Source: a virus
Lineage: Duplodnaviria; Heunggongvirae; Uroviricota; Caudoviricetes
Virus record (IMG/VR): IMGVR_UViG_2537561823_000013
Length of the DNA stretch: 9,289 bases
Reading direction: 5' to 3' (one strand)
Position numbers and translations under genes: made by a program. The notes under the pieces are model-generated. The model was not told where the DNA came from. It made no database searches and worked only from the letters and a program-made list of their open reading frames with translations. Shown piece by piece: positions 3,624-9,289 of this stretch (position 1 is the stretch's first letter; every line of letters begins with the position of its first letter).

Positions 3624-3911
3624 ATGAAACAGAAAATTTCTGGCTTTACTGCCAGCGGCCCCGCTCGGCCTGAAATCCGCCCCGGCGATATTTTCCGGGA
3701 TAACTATGGCGGCACGGTAACGATAAAAGGCGTGGCAGAACGGCGCATCACTTACCGCCGTGATGGCTACGAATATGACTGCGTGATGCCTGTTTATCAG
3801 TTCCGGCGTGATTTCACGCTGGTGGGCCATCGTAAAGCCGTAAATCAGAAACGTGCAGCAAGTCATATCCGCAAAATTCGTGAAATGCTGGTCGCAGGGG
3901 GTAAAAAATGA
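3624..3911 (+). CDS. hypothetical protein (95 aa)
   Basis: Open frame in operon context. Its stop overlaps the helicase start (ATGA at 3908-3911). Confidence 0.6.
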   Translation: MKQKISGFTASGPARPEIRPGDIFRDNYGGTVTIKGVAERRITYRRDGYEYDCVMPVYQFRRDFTLVGHRKAVNQKRAASHIRKIREMLVAGGKK

Positions 3912-5314
3912 AACTGGCACCGAACGTAAAACTGTTACCGAAAGATAAACACACTGAGGCGGTTATTTTTGCGGGTGATAATGCTCACTCCTTTGCAGAA
4001 CATTACATGATTGCACAGGCCAAAAAAGCAGGCGATCCCATCCCTCCGGTTTACCTGGGCCGTTATCAGTTAAGCGAACTGGACAACCTGCAGATTGTTG
4101 ATGAGGGGCGATACAGGGTAACGGTGATACGCGCCGGAAATATTGACGAAGCGCAGCTGTTAACCATAGCGACAAAACTGGCGATCGCCGGAGTCCAGGA
4201 AGCGCGGCTGCTTTCTGAAAACTTCGAATTACTGGAGAAATGGACCGACCAGCTTCCACGGCTACGGGAGACATGGGAGAGAGGGGAAAGCCTGATCATG
4301 AATGGAGGAAAACAAAAAATCACGCTACCGATTTCATGGGGTTCTGAGGGATTCGACGCGCAGCAAAGCTACGTAATTAAGGGGCTTATTCCGGCTGAAT
4401 CATTATGCAGCACCTACGGGGCCAGCGGTTCTTATAAATCGTTCCTGGCTATTTCCTGGTCGTGCCATGTTGCCACAGGTATGGCATGGGGAGGCCGCAG
4501 GGTAAGTAAGGGCGCGGTTATCTATATCGCTGGCGAAGGCAGTATGGGCGTAAAACGCCGCGTTAAGGCGTGGGAGATAACCCACGACAAGGTGGTTACG
4601 GATTTGTGCATCGTTAACGCGCCTGTCTTCCCTGCATCGCCTGACTATGTGGAGCAGGTTATCAGGACCGCCGGATTAGTGCAGGACAGAACGGGCGAAA
4701 GGGTGCGGATGATTGTCATTGACACGCTGGCCCGTTGCTTTGGTGGTCATGATGAAAATGACTCCCGCGACATGGGGGCGTTTATCCAGGGGTGTGACGC
4801 GATAAAGCAGGCCACGGGGGCCACGGTTCTGGTTGTGCATCATTCCGGCAAGGATGAGACGAAAGGGGCGCGGGGTTCCAGTGCATTCCGTGCGGCGCTT
4901 GATGCTGAGTTCCGAATCAGTCGGGAACATTCAGAGGCTACGGCGCTGGTTGCAGCATGTACGAAGATGAAGGACGCGGAGGAGCCAAAAGAAAGCGCCT
5001 ACGACCTTAAGAGCGTGGAGGTATTTACGGATCCTGAGGGTGAAGAAATCGTGTCCATGGTGGTGATTGACGTTCCCCGCGCCCCTGCTGAACTGGAGCG
5101 CATAGAGGAGGCCGGGAACAAGACGGAAAATCACACGGCTTTATGGGGTTGTATCCGGTCACGTATACAGCATGGTGATAAATGCACGATCCCGCTGCTA
5201 CGTGATGACATGAAAAAGCTGGGATATGACACAAAACACCTTAAACGATGGTTAGCCAAACTGGAAAAAGACGGCGTGATTTGCGTCGATGGGGATGATG
5301 TTCACCCACTGTAA
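3908..5314 (+). CDS. RepA-type (RecA-fold, AAA_25-like) replicative helicase / replication initiator with C-terminal putative DNA-binding domain
   Basis: 468 aa. P-loop-like TYGASGSYKSF, Walker B RMIVIDTLARCF, and VLVVHHSGKDETKGARGSSAF typical of the RepA/DnaB-like plasmid and satellite helicase family. SD aggggg sits about 9 nt upstream. No zinc-finger or Toprim primase signature was seen in the N-terminal 150 aa. Confidence 0.85.
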   Translation: MKLAPNVKLLPKDKHTEAVIFAGDNAHSFAEHYMIAQAKKAGDPIPPVYLGRYQLSELDNLQIVDEGRYRVTVIRAGNIDEAQLLTIATKLAIAGVQEARLLSENFELLEKWTDQLPRLRETWERGESLIMNGGKQKITLPISWGSEGFDAQQSYVIKGLIPAESLCSTYGASGSYKSFLAISWSCHVATGMAWGGRRVSKGAVIYIAGEGSMGVKRRVKAWEITHDKVVTDLCIVNAPVFPASPDYVEQVIRTAGLVQDRTGERVRMIVIDTLARCFGGHDENDSRDMGAFIQGCDAIKQATGATVLVVHHSGKDETKGARGSSAFRAALDAEFRISREHSEATALVAACTKMKDAEEPKESAYDLKSVEVFTDPEGEEIVSMVVIDVPRAPAELERIEEAGNKTENHTALWGCIRSRIQHGDKCTIPLLRDDMKKLGYDTKHLKRWLAKLEKDGVICVDGDDVHPL

Positions 5315-5514
5315 AAAGTGGGCGTTAAAAGTGGGAATAGTGGGTAATTTAACTGGAATTTAACAAAATCGCCCACTTTCCCACGTGTATACATCCCAAA
5401 AAGTGGGCACTAAAAAAATTCTTATGAAACAGTACGATATAAAACCACAAAATCCCAGGTGGGACGAAGTGGGAAACCATGAAAAGTGGGTAGAAAAAGT
5501 GGGCACAGGTGGGC
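5303..5514. repeat. iteron array with AT-rich spacer; candidate replication origin
   Basis: Core (A)AGTGGG(N) occurs as direct copies starting at 5316, 5329, 5338, 5401, 5457, 5467, 5484, 5497 and 5507. Inverted copies (CCCAC) are at 5303-5310, 5371-5378 and 5379-5384. An AT-rich stretch at 5409-5456 separates the two clusters. The array begins inside the last codons of the helicase gene. Confidence 0.65.
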
Positions 5515-5516
5515 GC

Positions 5517-5768
5517 ATGACCAGAAAAACCAGAGATAAGACAGCACCAAAATATCGCGCATTAGACATGACAGAGCACGCCTTAAAGGTGGCAATCAGA
5601 ACGATAGACCGCCACGCGGGGGAAGGATACGCGAAAGCACATCCCGAACTGATAAGCGCATTCATGACCACGACGGCGGCAAATTTTGCCACGCTGACAG
5701 AGCGGGAGATTGCGGAAGCTGAACAGGTGACAACCATCAACGTTAAAACCGGAGAGCAGACAGCATGA
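5517..5768 (+). CDS. hypothetical protein (83 aa), start trimmed to exclude the iteron-encoded N-terminus
   Basis: The ORF track starts at 5385, but codons 5385-5516 are the iterons themselves (repeated KVG/EVG/KWV). ATG 5517 follows aggtgg. The stop overlaps the ssb start (ATGA at 5765-5768). Coding status is uncertain. Confidence 0.4.
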   Translation: MTRKTRDKTAPKYRALDMTEHALKVAIRTIDRHAGEGYAKAHPELISAFMTTTAANFATLTEREIAEAEQVTTINVKTGEQTA

Positions 5769-6187
5769 CAGCACAGATAGCAGCTTACGGTCGGCTGGTG
5801 GCTGACCCGCAGTTAAAGACCACCAGCAAAGGGACACAAATGGCGATGGCGGGTATGGCGGTTCCCCTGCCGTGCAGCCAGGCAGATGACGGAACGGCGA
5901 CGATGTGGTTATCTGTCCTGGCGTTTGGCAGACAGGCCGACGCACTGGCAAAACACCACAAAGGCGAACTCCTGAGCGTGGCGGGTAACATGCAGGTGAG
6001 CCAGTGGACAGGCCAGAACGGCAAAACGCGGCAGGGCTGGCAGGTTATCGCAGATAGTGTAATCAGTGCCAGAACGGCGCGACCGGGCGGCAAAAAAGGT
6101 CAACAGGGCCAGGCCACTGACGCATTGAACAGGGCAAAACAACAGTCAGGGAATGATGAACCGTACGGCGATAATATACCGTTTTAA
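5765..6187 (+). CDS. ssb: single-stranded DNA-binding protein (SSB family, OB fold) with C-terminal ...DNIPF tip
   Basis: 140 aa. WLSVLAFGRQADALAKHHKGELLSVAGNMQVSQWTGQNGKTRQGWQVIADSV aligns by eye with E. coli SSB [52 protein letters not shown]. The C-terminus DEPYGDNIPF resembles the canonical DDDIPF tip. SD ggagag lies 9 nt upstream. Confidence 0.8.
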   Translation: MTAQIAAYGRLVADPQLKTTSKGTQMAMAGMAVPLPCSQADDGTATMWLSVLAFGRQADALAKHHKGELLSVAGNMQVSQWTGQNGKTRQGWQVIADSVISARTARPGGKKGQQGQATDALNRAKQQSGNDEPYGDNIPF

Positions 6188-6203: not shown

Positions 6204-6232
6204 ATGCCGGAAAAAAATAGATTTTCCGGCAT
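6204..6232. terminator. strong hairpin at the replication/morphogenesis boundary; possible terminator, better formed for the minus strand
   Basis: atgccgg (6204-6210) pairs with ccggcat (6226-6232), extendable through A/T pairs (ATGCCGGAAAA / TTTTCCGGCAT). A T-rich tract follows only on the minus-strand transcript (tttttgtttg), not on the plus strand. Confidence 0.4.
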
Positions 6233-6397
6233 GCTACATAAATCCCGACCAAAGGAAGTAAATACATTAACACGAATTATCAGCACTGAAGTTGTCACGG
6301 CAGATTTTATACAACATTGCACTTGGTTGCATGTATTCGCATAGCAGACATCGGTAATAGAATATATTCACAATTATTTGTAATGAATGTAAAGAGG

Positions 6398-7444
6398 ATG
6401 AGTATGGTTGATTTATATTCGCCTACACAGCTTGTGCAGGTGGCTAATGCTGAAGATGTGCAAAAAAAACTAAATGCGTTGTTTACCAGTTTGTTTTTCA
6501 CTCGCTCGGTAATGTTTGAATCGAGAGACATTATTCTTGATACGATCGACGATCCAAATATCCCGATCGCGGCGTTTTGCTCTCCTATGGTGGGCAGTAA
6601 AGTTTCACGAGATGAGGGATACGAATCAAAAACAATTCGCCCAGGCTATATGAAACCGAAAAGCAGTATTGATCCAAATAAGTTAGCTGTGCGCCCTGCT
6701 GGTGTATCACCTGAACAATACAATGCTTTTGGAGCGCGTAATATTAAAGTTAAACAGGCGATTGTAAATCAGGCTAAAGCTATACGTGCACGTATTGAAT
6801 GGATTGCTGTTCAGGCAATCACAACGGGGAAAAATATCATTGAGGGCGATGGGATTGAACGTTATGAACTGGACTGGAATATAAAACCACAAAATATTAT
6901 CACGCAGTCTGGCGGTGCTGAGTGGTCAGGTAAGGATAAAGAAACTTTTGATCCAAATGATGATATTGAGAGCTACGCAGAATTTAGTGAGGGCGTCACT
7001 AATATCATCATTATGGGCGGTAATGTATGGAAGAAATACCGTTCATTCAGAGCGATAAAAGAGGCTCTGGATACCCGTCGTGGTTCTAATTCCGAACTGG
7101 AAACGGCCCTTAAAGACCTTGGTGATTCGGTGAGTTTTAAAGGGTATATGGGCGATGTTGCGATTGTTGTTTACAGCGGACGTTATACCGACGAGGACGG
7201 AACTGAAAAACATTTCCTTGATCCTGATTTGATGGTGCTTGGCAATACGGCTCTTCAGGGGATTGTCGCCTATGGCGGTATTCAGGATCCGGAGCTAATC
7301 CGAATGGGGCTGACTAAAGCCGAACTTGCACCGAAAAACTATATTGTGCCTGGTGATCCGGCTATTGAGTACGTACAAACGCACTCTGCACCACAGCCAA
7401 TACCGGCCCGCATCAATCGTTTTGTTACCGTTCGCATTGGCTAA
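6398..7444 (+). CDS. major capsid protein, phage lambda gpE family (HK97 fold)
   Basis: Long collinear similarity to lambda gpE as recalled, for example NIITQSGGAEWSGKDKETFDPNDDIESYA...FRAIKEALDTRRGSNSELETALKDLG...GYMGDVAIVVYSG...MVLGNTALQGIVAYGGIQD versus lambda NITQSGGTEWSKRDKSTYDPTDDIEAYA...FKAVKEKLDTRRGSNSELETAVKDLG...GMYGDVAIVVYSG...MVLGNTQARGLRTYGCIQD. Start is MSMVD (6398), mirroring the lambda E MSM N-terminus; the SD aagagg (6392-6397) would favour ATG 6404. The ORF-track start 6317 was rejected. Confidence 0.9.
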   Translation: MSMVDLYSPTQLVQVANAEDVQKKLNALFTSLFFTRSVMFESRDIILDTIDDPNIPIAAFCSPMVGSKVSRDEGYESKTIRPGYMKPKSSIDPNKLAVRPAGVSPEQYNAFGARNIKVKQAIVNQAKAIRARIEWIAVQAITTGKNIIEGDGIERYELDWNIKPQNIITQSGGAEWSGKDKETFDPNDDIESYAEFSEGVTNIIIMGGNVWKKYRSFRAIKEALDTRRGSNSELETALKDLGDSVSFKGYMGDVAIVVYSGRYTDEDGTEKHFLDPDLMVLGNTALQGIVAYGGIQDPELIRMGLTKAELAPKNYIVPGDPAIEYVQTHSAPQPIPARINRFVTVRIG

Positions 7445-7453
7445 GGGGGAGCA

Positions 7454-7795
7454 ATGGCTACTCATTACACTGAACTCATGTCTGGTACTGAAGCACTGGT
7501 TACTACGCTGGGGATATTTTCAGCCAATAAAGGGGTAATACCTGCGTTTACGCCACTGATGCAGGAAGATGCAACTGGTGCGCTAGTGGTATGGGATGGA
7601 ACGAGCGCAGGCAAAGCGGTTTATGTTTCCGCTGTACAAATCGACACAGCGAAAAAAACACAGGCACAGGTTTATAAGACAGGTGTTTTAAATGTTGATG
7701 CTCTGAACTGGCCTGAGTCTGTAAGAGAACTGTCGGCAAAGGTTGCCGCGTTTGTTGGCTCAGGTATTTCTGTTCAGCCGCTGGCTCGTGTGTAA
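7454..7795 (+). CDS. head decoration protein, phage lambda gpD family
   Basis: 113 aa. TPLMQEDATGALVVWDGTSAGKAVYVSAV...YKTGVLNVDALNWPES...AAFVGSGISV matches recalled lambda gpD [29 protein letters not shown]...YKSGTFRYEDVLWPEA...TAFAGTAISIV. SD aaggggga lies 5 nt upstream. Confidence 0.85.
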   Translation: MATHYTELMSGTEALVTTLGIFSANKGVIPAFTPLMQEDATGALVVWDGTSAGKAVYVSAVQIDTAKKTQAQVYKTGVLNVDALNWPESVRELSAKVAAFVGSGISVQPLARV

Positions 7796-7806
7796 AGGGG
7801 GATACA

Positions 7807-8190
7807 ATGCAGAATCATTACAATGACCTTAAGCCAATTGCCGAAATGATGTATCCGGATCCAGCAGTAGAGGAATTAAAGGCTATTGCTGACAAAATGC
7901 GTTTAAGTGAACGCCTTGTTGATATGAATCAGGTGATGGAACTTACTACCCTTAGCCGTCGCACATTGCTAAACCTTGAGGCTCGTGGAGAGTTCCCCGA
8001 ACGCGTACAGGTTACGGAAGGGCGTAAGGCCTGGTATTTAAGTGAAGTGATCGACTGGATAAACAATATTCCTCGAGCTTCTGAATATTGCCGCGTACCT
8101 GTCCCCAAAAAGCCAGATGCGGCGCTATGCCTCAAGATTGAGCGTGTACGTCGCAATGCACGGGATGGTCGCTATAAGTTGATTGGTTGA
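7807..8190 (+). CDS. AlpA/Xis-like HTH domain protein with N-terminal extension (second AlpA-like gene in the element)
   Basis: 127 aa. MELTTLSRRTLLNLEARGEFPERVQVTEGRKAWYLSEVIDWI fits the AlpA-family HTH pattern, preceded by about 40 aa of unrelated sequence. SD agggggat lies 5 nt upstream. It sits between the decoration gene and cos. Confidence 0.7.
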   Translation: MQNHYNDLKPIAEMMYPDPAVEELKAIADKMRLSERLVDMNQVMELTTLSRRTLLNLEARGEFPERVQVTEGRKAWYLSEVIDWINNIPRASEYCRVPVPKKPDAALCLKIERVRRNARDGRYKLIG

Positions 8191-8218
8191 TGAAATTAGG
8201 GCCCGTTCTGGCTGGCGG

Positions 8219-8280
8219 GGCCTTTCCGGCGATCCGGCAGGCTACGGGGCGGCGACCTTGCGGTTTTTCGCTATTTATGA
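8219..8280 (+). other. lambda-type cos site: cosQ-like flank, cosN with 12-nt cohesive-end sequence, and conserved first 22 nt of the lambda left end
   Basis: 8247-8258 GGGCGGCGACCT is the lambda cohesive-end sequence. 8247-8280 GGGCGGCGACCTTGCGGTTTTTCGCTATTTATGA differs at 2 of 34 positions from the lambda left end as I recall it (GGGCGGCGACCTCGCGGGTTTTCGCTATTTATGA). 8219-8246 GGCCTTTCCGGCGATCCGGCAGGCTACG differs at 4 of 28 positions from the recalled lambda right end (GTCCTTTCCGGTGATCCGACAGGTTACG). Confidence 0.8.
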
Positions 8281-8391
8281 GCTTTTTCAGGGTGGTGGTG
8301 GTGGTTTTGTTGTTTGTTCTATCTCCATGAATGAAAAGGGAAAGATAACACCAACACACCAACCTGAAACCTTAACTAAGTGGGGATATTG
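8281..8391 (+). repeat. divergent cosB-like region with short repeats between cosN and terS; candidate TerS binding sites
   Basis: (GGT)5 at 8291-8305 followed by GTT/TTG-rich tttgttgtttgtt. Tandem CACCAACA / CACCAACC at 8349-8364 is roughly the inverted counterpart. The sequence no longer matches the recalled lambda cosB (AAATTTTCCGGTTTAAGGCGTTTCCGTTCTTCTTCG...). Confidence 0.4.
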
Positions 8392-8934
8392 ATGAAATCG
8401 CACCTGATGAACAAAAAAACTATGGCGCAAAGCTGCCGCGTAAGTGCGACAGCGTTCGACAAGTGGGGAGTGACTCCCGTTGAGCGTAAAGGCCGTGAGG
8501 CGTTTTATGATGTTGCTAGCGTGATAGACAATAGGGTTAACAATGCAATTAACCAACTTACAAACGACAAAGGCGAGATTGATGATGATGAACTTTTACG
8601 CGTAAGAATCAGATTAATGACGGCCCAGGCGGAAGCGCAGGAACTTAAAAACGAGCGCGAACGCGGCGAGGTGATTGATACAAAGTTTTGCATCTACGCG
8701 ATTTCAAAGCTGGCACAACAAATTTCTTCAATCATGGACAGCCTCCCGCTCACAATGCAAAGGCGCTTTCCCGATATAAGGCCGTATATGCTGGATGAAC
8801 TAAAAAGGGAAATAGTCAAAGCATGTAACGCATGTGCAAGACTTGACGAAAACCTGCCACAGATACTGGCTGATTACCTGATGGAAACTACCGGAAACGT
8901 GCCTGAGAAGTTGCTACAGAACAAAGGCGAGTAA
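8392..8934 (+). CDS. terminase small subunit, phage lambda Nu1 family
   Basis: RLMTAQAEAQELKNERERGEVIDTKFCIYAISKLAQQISSIMDSLPLTMQRRFPDI...LKREIVKACNACARLDENLPQILADYL matches recalled lambda Nu1 RLTRAQADAQELKNARDSAEVVETAFCTFVLSRIAGEIASILDGLPLSVQRRFPEL...LKRDIIKAMNKAAALDELIPGLLSEYI. The N-terminus aligns with the Nu1 winged-HTH. The ORF-track start is a GTG at 8380; ATG 8392 has a GGGGA SD 5 nt upstream; ATG 8407 is an alternative. Confidence 0.85.
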   Translation: MKSHLMNKKTMAQSCRVSATAFDKWGVTPVERKGREAFYDVASVIDNRVNNAINQLTNDKGEIDDDELLRVRIRLMTAQAEAQELKNERERGEVIDTKFCIYAISKLAQQISSIMDSLPLTMQRRFPDIRPYMLDELKREIVKACNACARLDENLPQILADYLMETTGNVPEKLLQNKGE

Positions 8935-9007
8935 CCGCCGCCCCGTAACGGGCCATAATTCCAGGAAGGACCCGACGACACCAGGCTATCAGAACGATGA
9001 GGGCACA

Positions 9008-9289
9008 ATGACTGAAGCCGAACTACTGGGATTAATCCGCCGCGTCGTCGGAATCAGCCAGCAGCATGACGAACAGGCCACACAGCCGGACAGCGTGACC
9101 GCTGAAAATTATGTGCGTGTTGTTGCTGAGGTGATGCGCCGTGATGGTATTGAGCTTAACGGCGTGGATATGCGCAACATACGAACAAGAGTCCTTGAGT
9201 TGCTGGCATACCGTCGCCGTTCTCAACAACGGAGGGAGAGCGCGAAAAATACTTACCAGTGGAAGAAGCCGGAACGGTTGCGGCGGTAG
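9008..9289 (+). CDS. hypothetical protein, 3' end runs off the window; not recognisably a lambda gpA-type large terminase N-terminus
   Basis: 93+ aa open frame with SD gaggg 4 nt upstream. MTEAELLGLIRRVVGISQQHDEQ... shows no resemblance by eye to the lambda gpA N-terminus. It is separated from terS by a 73-nt gap rather than overlapping it. Confidence 0.5.
   Translation: MTEAELLGLIRRVVGISQQHDEQATQPDSVTAENYVRVVAEVMRRDGIELNGVDMRNIRTRVLELLAYRRRSQQRRESAKNTYQWKKPERLRR

Follow-up and report, generated by a model that had tools for sequence, protein, structure and literature searches.

We studied a DNA stretch of 9,289 nucleotides from a Caudoviricetes virus record (IMG/VR IMGVR_UViG_2537561823_000013; the whole stretch is called the window below). 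The element it comes from is an ordinary member of the catalogued Gram-negative cos-type family of phage-inducible chromosomal islands (PICIs), and its gene set is already known. The window is a rightward gene array: an integrase, an AlpA regulator, small open reading frames (ORFs), a RepA helicase and a single-strand DNA-binding protein (SSB), followed by a late block. The whole is best explained, with high probability, as a classical cos-type PICI of type A in which 6404-9289 is the late zone, packaging depends on a helper phage and the capsid and decoration genes form an accessory pair. A first-pass annotation of this DNA had read it as a satellite of a lambdoid helper that carries a lambda E-like capsid, a D-like decoration protein, a helix-turn-helix (HTH) protein, cos and a Nu1-like small terminase subunit (TerS), in this order, and lacks portal, protease, large terminase subunit (TerL) and tail genes. 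Pfam, PHROG and PDB matches for the genes, and sequence comparison for cos, placed each of these components where it had been located and in the same order (E, D, HTH, cos, Nu1). The satellite nature, the lambdoid helper and the missing head genes stood; the idea of a partial capsid-forming strategy did not, and the gene set, whose novelty the annotation had left undecided, turned out to be described (see below). The annotation did not mention an ORF of 93 amino acids (aa) at 9008-9289. The late block contains the following features:

6404-7444, + strand: major capsid protein of the lambda gpE family (HK97 fold), 346 aa, without a fused scaffold domain (Pfam, PHROG, PDB)
7454-7795, + strand: head decoration protein of the lambda gpD/phage 21 SHP family, 113 aa (HDPD 4.6e-15; phrog_49 1.9e-26; PDB 1TD0 3e-16)
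7807-8190, + strand: second AlpA-family HTH protein, 127 aa (Pfam AlpA 1.4e-8; phrog_2790 1.8e-48; PDB 8C3T 1.6e-10)
8215-8258, + strand: cosQ-like sequence and cosN, with the exact lambda cosN 12-mer GGGCGGCGACCT at 8247-8258
8259-8391, + strand: PICI-specific cosB-like region, conserved among PICIs with this TerS
8392-8934, + strand: small terminase subunit of the Nu1 family, 180 aa (Phage_Nu1 2.9e-24; phrog_57 1.2e-52)
9008-9289, + strand: conserved 93-aa protein orf93 (phrog_1561), present in both TerS-type and Rpp-type PICIs

The window sequence was identical to the IMG/VR contig UViG_2537561826_000014, and 100% identical chromosomal copies of it were found in six complete Escherichia coli genomes. 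In one of these sequences, NZ_CP025859, the integrase lies ~210 bp downstream of tRNA-Pro, adjoining yejM, and ~1.1 kb past the window end there is a second, degenerate tRNA 3' end, followed by yejO. The complete element, from tRNA-Pro (left attachment site, attL) to the degenerate tRNA fragment (attR), is ~10.6 kb long, and a 26-nt arm-type repeat, TTTTTAGCTACACGTT(T/A)AGCTATACG, is present inside both ends. Extension of the contig to the other att end, a check that the first-pass annotation had proposed, brought no portal, protease or terL gene to light and ruled out a capsid-forming PICI (cf-PICI) and a prophage. From att to att there is no portal, protease/scaffold, TerL, head-tail, tail or lysis gene, so that the absence first noticed in the window holds for the complete element, and no homologue of lambda A, W, B, C or FII was found in locus L001. 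The 1.1-kb tail beyond the window has zero annotated genes in the identical genome copies; two antisense ORFs (69 and 112 aa) overlap orf93, and no other ORF in the tail is longer than 75 aa. The tRNA 3'-end copy at attR (TTTGAATACTCTCGTGGACCAAAAATC, L001 18368-18395) is degenerate relative to tRNA-Pro (TTCAAATCCTCTCGTGCCGACCAAATCG, L001 7765-7791), which matches the published observation that the displaced tRNA fragment is damaged by PICIs.

The element presents the traits that define Gram-negative PICIs (Fillol-Salom 2018): an integrase at the left end, alpA and rightward genes; a replication initiator of its own, followed at once on the 3' side by an iteron origin; a small size (~10.6 kb, within the usual range of about 8-15 kb) and a PICI-specific att site, here tRNA-Pro/yejM; and no tail, lysis, portal or large-terminase genes. 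In Table S1 of that work (PMC6092414), yejM is listed as a PICI att site and E. coli PICIs range from 8.5 to 11.9 kb. SatelliteFinder PICI type A is defined by five core components, int, a regulator (alpA/merR/stl), pri-rep, capsid and terS, and 97% of this type is in E. coli (de Sousa et al. 2023). Judged by Pfam and PHROG matches against the published definition, the element has all five and none of the forbidden components (portal, connectors, TerL, tail, holin). Of the 29 reference Gram-negative PICIs, 21 have a major capsid gene (Tommasini et al. 2023, PMC10111431). The question whether this exact gene set had been described, left open in the first-pass annotation, is therefore answered by type A itself and by two published islands, EcCICFT073 and EcCIIHE3034.

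EcCIIHE3034, published as a TerS-encoding PICI (Fillol-Salom 2018, ISME J, PMC6092414), and EcCI18098 resemble the window element in size (10.5-10.8 kb), in the int-alpA-replication backbone and in the late order of capsid, decoration, small protein, cos, TerS and 93-aa ORF. The EcCIIHE3034 TerS is 87% identical to that of the window, and its third late protein has 137 aa. Both islands differ from the window element in belonging to another capsid/decoration lineage (55% identity) than its 'W-type' and in having a c1501-like third gene instead of the AlpA-like HTH; they also have a primase replicon, the cspD-clpS site and another integrase, where the window has a RepA helicase and tRNA-Pro/yejM. 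EcCICFT073, the Rpp-encoding model of Gram-negative cos PICIs (Fillol-Salom 2018, 2019), located between roxA (ycfD) and phoQ in the CFT073 chromosome, shares the backbone, a capsid and a decoration protein (54% identical each), orf93 (78% identical) and a lambda-type cosN at the same position. Its late block consists of capsid c1499, decoration c1500, a 137-aa protein, RppA and the 93-aa ORF. RppA (144 aa, homologous to RppC in PDB 6HLK) is a TerS-binding redirector; the window has at this position a complete Nu1-family TerS with no detectable similarity to RppA, which sets the element apart from the Rpp type, and it has one cos site in contrast to the two of EcCICFT073.

Other satellites share fewer traits with the element or differ from it in location. 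Helper-embedded PICIs (11capE, PMC10111431) have 98-100% identical capsids, the same decoration and AlpA-like genes and often the same TerS and orf93, but they sit inside the helper B, C and E head genes, whereas the window element occupies a chromosomal tRNA gene, tRNA-Pro between yejM and yejO. The cf-PICIs (EcCIEDL933; Alqurainy et al.) also combine a PICI backbone with capsid and TerS genes, but their genes for head and packaging are complete (portal, protease, connectors, HNH, TerL), and they make their own small capsids; between attL and attR of the window element there is no portal, prohead protease, head-tail adaptor/connector, HNH or TerL gene. P4-like satellites have in common with it alpA, int and an Icd-like gene only, and psu-delta-sid, epsilon/ash and the alpha primase-helicase were absent from the Pfam and PHROG matches of the scanned ORFs. 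Among the pathogenicity islands of Staphylococcus aureus (SaPIs), SaPIbov5 encodes a satellite capsid homologue, Ccm, and pac-SaPIs a TerS that redirects the helper TerL. This is a common logic, but the sequences are unrelated and the hosts Gram-positive. Ccm has been shown to alter capsid size; for the capsid homologues of E. coli PICIs, no comparable effect has been found.

The capsid protein matched Pfam Phage_cap_E (1.7e-40) and phrog_29 (1.6e-90); in PDB its best match was 3BQW ('putative capsid protein of prophage', 2e-121), and lambda gpE (7VI9) was matched at 6e-77. Along its full length it shares 42% of its residues with lambda gpE. Translation more likely starts at ATG 6404 than at TTG 6317, since ATG 6404 is the RefSeq start, is preceded by the ribosome-binding site AGAGGA and agrees with homologues that begin M-x-DLY. 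Among 50,697 INPHARED records no phage capsid was more than 42% identical to it, while the gpE proteins of lambda and N15 share 90% identity; by these comparisons the capsid lineage is satellite-specific. With the relative L003 (82% nucleotide identity) as reference, the ratio of nonsynonymous to synonymous substitution rates (dN/dS) was 0.089 for the capsid, 0.053 for the decoration protein, 0.18 for the HTH, 0.15-0.17 for TerS and 0.11-0.31 for orf93. The capsid and decoration genes are thus under strong purifying selection and are functional. Pseudogenised remnants, which the first-pass annotation had named as a result that would overturn it, were not found: both ORFs are intact, with dN/dS of 0.05-0.09.

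Capsid genes of this kind fall into two lineages, 54-55% identical, and the matching decoration proteins are 46-54% identical between lineages. The third gene tracks the capsid lineage: it encodes the AlpA-like HTH here and, in the CFT073 lineage, a c1501-like protein, which is acidic, has 137 aa, is unrelated to the HTH and matched no family (L004 10018-10431, L007 17083-17496, L012 9024-9437). This pairing was perfect in nine hand-checked loci, and the second HTH was present in 79 of the 80 IMG/VR loci with this capsid type. TerS, RppA or neither may come after either capsid lineage. The co-variation of the first three genes and the exchange of those downstream indicate that capsid, decoration and third gene are passed on together, the recombination joint lying near cos. 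Within the capsid, residues ~205-265 (alignment columns 211-270) are 66-70% identical to lambda gpE, and the same stretch is 43-67% identical to the other PICI capsid lineage, i.e., no higher than to lambda; this suggests that the capsid gene is a mosaic or has undergone gene conversion with its counterpart in a helper.

The element has a single cos site. In a Ravinvirus prophage, the intergenic cos region upstream of Nu1 matches a segment of 66 nt (8215-8280) at 88% identity. Lambda shares the ~30 nt that come directly after cosN (CGCGGnTTTTCGCTATTTATGA); farther on the sequence is unlike lambda or N15. The cosB-like region contains an inverted repeat, TTTCAGGGTGGTG (8285-8297) and CACCAACCTGAAA (8357-8369), with arms 59 nt apart, which is present in EcCIIHE3034 too. 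A RefSeq hypothetical protein of 69 aa (WP_001440045.1, 8183-8392) spans cosQ, cosN and cosB; it is probably an artefact of annotation in a packaging site that codes for nothing. The best phage match of TerS was N15 gp1 (47% identity). The alignment of TerS with lambda and N15 Nu1 begins near residue 70 and extends to the part with which lambda Nu1 binds gpA, and the C-terminal 95 aa of TerS are 48% identical to Nu1; the N-terminal, DNA-binding end differs from lambda and is nearer to N15. A sequence search of PDB with TerS gave no Nu1 or Rpp match, because the solved structures cover only the divergent N-terminal domains. The neighbouring orf93 matched nothing in Pfam, NCBIfam, PADLOC or PDB, and its homologues (86-100% identity) are nearly all from E. 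coli. Its AlphaFold2 model has three helices with a moderate pLDDT of 70, and a Foldseek search of BFVD with this model gave no match with E below 1.

This TerS type occurred in 727 of 5426 complete E. coli genomes, and rppA, about seven times rarer, in 97 of them. The capsid and decoration allele was present at a length coverage of at least 80% in 395 complete E. coli genomes, and a scan of genome contigs with the capsid alignment and strict peptide patterns returned only four loci. The late block is paired with varied integrases, att sites and replicons (RepA helicase or primase), and is also found in Kluyvera, Superficieibacter, Cedecea and Kosakonia. In IMG/VR, a sample biased towards elements inside prophages, 80 loci had a 98-100% identical capsid, and about 55 of them were inside a prophage head-gene cluster, where they split the helper gene for the portal (B) or for the capsid (E). 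Four composites were examined in detail; the Nu1, A, B, C, D and E genes around the island in them were 97-100% identical to lambda, and the same arrangement was seen in two loci from other genera. Such loci belong to the helper-embedded PICIs described by Tommasini et al. The island E of the composites is ~41-42% identical to the helper E, and the island TerS 36-38% identical overall to the helper Nu1. This embedding in lambda-type head clusters indicates that the natural partners are phages with lambda-type head and terminase genes, in agreement with the lambdoid helper of the first-pass annotation.

We propose the following course of events. AlpA is likely switched on by a lambdoid helper, as judged from relatives; the island would then excise and replicate from the RepA/iteron origin into concatemers. 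The island Nu1-type TerS would bind the island-specific cosB, and its C-terminal half, which resembles that of lambda and N15 Nu1, would recruit the helper large terminase (gpA type). The latter would cut at the lambda-identical cosN and package island DNA into helper procapsids. What is packaged would probably be about four island copies in one concatemer (~42 kb); the heads would be of full size, and helper proteins would close them and add the tails. A Nu1-like TerS C-terminus, lambda cosQ/cosN and a PICI-specific cosB fit such a combination of private cosB, helper TerL and standard cosN. The att-to-att lengths of the elements are 10.4-11.2 kb, and four copies amount to 42-45 kb, which falls inside the lambda packaging limits. 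This length also agrees with published phage-length packaged DNA, the E. coli model island being packaged as ~45-kb concatemers (PMC10111431). The island TerS may be seen as the cos-phage counterpart of the SaPI TerS, and as an alternative to Rpp at the same locus. The capsid and decoration pair would supply subunits for lambda-type shells that form on the helper portal, scaffold and protease, or would modify these shells. Our best current guess is that it is a conserved accessory with such a contribution, dispensable in the laboratory; it is not a sign of a new strategy.

Several points weigh against this interpretation as a classical, helper-packaged PICI with an accessory capsid pair. The searchable literature contained no paper reporting a helper for a TerS-type E. 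coli PICI, and EcCIIHE3034 and EcCI18098 were barely mobilised by resident prophages. The association with lambda-head prophages is seen in the IMG/VR sample, with the bias mentioned above. The interaction of TerS with gpA and the tetramer packaging, with its number of copies per head, are inferred and not measured, as is the structural role of E and D. Furthermore, abundant structural genes with dN/dS below 0.1 sit oddly with the word 'dispensable', and likely have a role that laboratory assays have not seen.

The other explanations differ in what the capsid genes are supposed to do. The first-pass annotation favoured a partial capsid-forming satellite, whose E and D would build a shell, maybe a smaller one, on the helper portal, scaffold and protease, while the island TerS and cos direct the DNA into it. 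We regard this as unlikely. The capsid is full length and intact, the decoration protein matches it and co-diverges with it in two lineages, both are strongly selected, the E lineage is satellite-specific (at most 42% identical to any INPHARED phage), and many relatives interrupt the helper E or B gene; one 10.6-kb copy would be of about the right size for a T=3 shell and two copies for a T=4 shell, which is arithmetic and not a test. All this has to be set against the only experiments on a close relative. In the published work on EcCICFT073, deletion of c1499 or c1500 left transfer and interference unchanged, transfer of the c1499::cat island persisted at 1e5-1e6 per ml, with a maximum of 1e6 per ml for phage 80, and all DNA packaged with lambda was phage-sized; overexpression of single late genes other than rppA left lambda unaffected. 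The PICI capsid gene is likewise stated to be unnecessary for helper-assisted transfer in PMC10111431, and the island has no scaffold, protease or portal genes of its own. That island E and D enter the transducing particles, as whole or mixed shells on the helper portal, scaffold and protease, which would make TerS-type PICIs 'shell-only', is accordingly doubtful. Since both genes are functional and co-inherited, some structural role is possible, though in EcCICFT073 it was neither shown nor needed for transfer.

A second possibility is that the island capsid co-assembles with helper gpE into small capsids that exclude the helper genome, as Ccm does in SaPIbov5. A homologue of the helper capsid on a cos-type satellite invites this comparison, and PmCI172, a Pasteurella PICI with a capsid homologue, is known to make small capsids; yet EcCICFT073 with lambda gave neither small capsids nor PICI-sized DNA, deletion of c1499 or c1500 failed to relieve interference, and the element sizes fit four copies per lambda head. 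We hold such a size redirector to be very improbable. The E, D and Nu1 genes belong to lambda head and packaging families, which might also be expected of a decayed lambdoid prophage that kept them by chance. This explanation is effectively refuted: the same compact architecture is found again and again, in five genera, at several att sites and with varied integrases and replicons, purifying selection acts on all the genes, none of which is broken, and the gene order is unlike lambda. In addition, the genes are 36-42% identical to lambda and are not degraded copies, and no fragments of other phage genes were seen in the element.

With the element placed among classical cos-type PICIs, its value as a discovery is small: the gene set has stood in publications and catalogues since 2018, serves SatelliteFinder as a detection rule and is present in hundreds of E. 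coli genomes. The worthwhile question is why a capsid gene and its matching decoration gene are maintained under strong purifying selection in most Gram-negative PICIs, when deletion of either was phenotype-free in the one island tested. The TerS variant is commoner than the Rpp model island, and its association with lambda-head prophages points to an obvious candidate helper. If E and D were incorporated into particles, TerS-type PICIs (~13% of complete E. coli genomes) would be intermediate between classical PICIs and cf-PICIs. The benefit would then be visible only with natural lambda-head helpers, e.g., where the helper E or B gene is interrupted or the capsid protein is limiting or targeted.

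Upstream of the late block, the window contains the following features:

1-1242, + strand: integrase (Pfam Phage_integrase, Phage_int_M, Arm-DNA-bind_3), with tRNA-Pro just upstream in locus L001
1768-1974, + strand: AlpA regulator, the activator/excisionase-type HTH of Gram-negative PICIs (Pfam Phage_AlpA 5.6e-9)
3908-5314, + strand: RepA-type replicative helicase/initiator (Pfam AAA_25 6.8e-43; phrog_2850 5e-185)
5314-5508, no strand: iteron-type replication origin with seven iterons, directly 3' of repA
5765-6187, + strand: single-strand DNA-binding protein (Pfam SSB 7.5e-15)
6204-6232, no strand: G+C-rich hairpin flanked by A and T runs, terminator-like
6305-6363, + strand: conserved motif TTGC-N6-TTGC-N6-TCGC followed by a weak sigma-70-like promoter (putative), kept in relatives

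The small ORFs between AlpA and repA include Icd-like and DUF4222 proteins. All genes are rightward except a YlcI/YnfO-like gene and one small ORF, which lie on the other strand. The seven iterons, (A/G)AAAGTGGG, are located at 5314-5503, and their window-wide count was reached in 0 of 200 shuffles; the RepA-type helicase, iteron origin and SSB of the first-pass annotation were thus borne out. In relatives, the position of repA may hold a primase instead.

The hairpin at 6204-6232 looks like a terminator between the replication module and the late block. Six loci from five genera (window 6305-6345; L003 and L008-L011) have kept the motif that precedes the capsid gene, in the form TTTATACAnnATTGCAC-N4-TTGCA-N5-T(T/C)GCA, 60-95 nt upstream of the capsid ATG, and the weak sigma-70-like site is at 6336-6363. 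TTGC-N6-TTGC occurs once in the window, which alone is not significant. TTGC repeats spaced by 6 nt have the geometry of lambda CII boxes. Motif, weak promoter and upstream hairpin together suggest that 6305-6363 is a putative activator-dependent promoter of the late block, from the capsid gene through decoration, HTH, cos and TerS to orf93. A sigma-54 promoter at the TTGCAC...TTGCA motif was considered and rejected, since the GG is absent and the spacing is one base short.

In the tail beyond the window, Rfam found tRNA alone at gathering score, besides chance-level matches at E up to 1. A segment of ~100 nt (L001 17580-17740, ~300-450 bp past the window end) is 89-95% conserved in about 25 other PICI loci, some of which have it two or three times. 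It had no Rfam match and did not fold significantly better than shuffled sequence (z = -0.96), and it is followed by four GTGAC repeats with a spacing of ~10-11 nt. In relatives without TerS, the slot after the HTH carries other cargo. A helper-embedded PICI of Cedecea encodes there a 382-aa protein (L010 12106-13254, minus strand) whose N-terminus appears TIR-like by eye only, and a Kluyvera locus a 199-aa protein (L008 12062-12661) whose C-terminus, again by eye only, resembles the lambda tail-assembly protein I.

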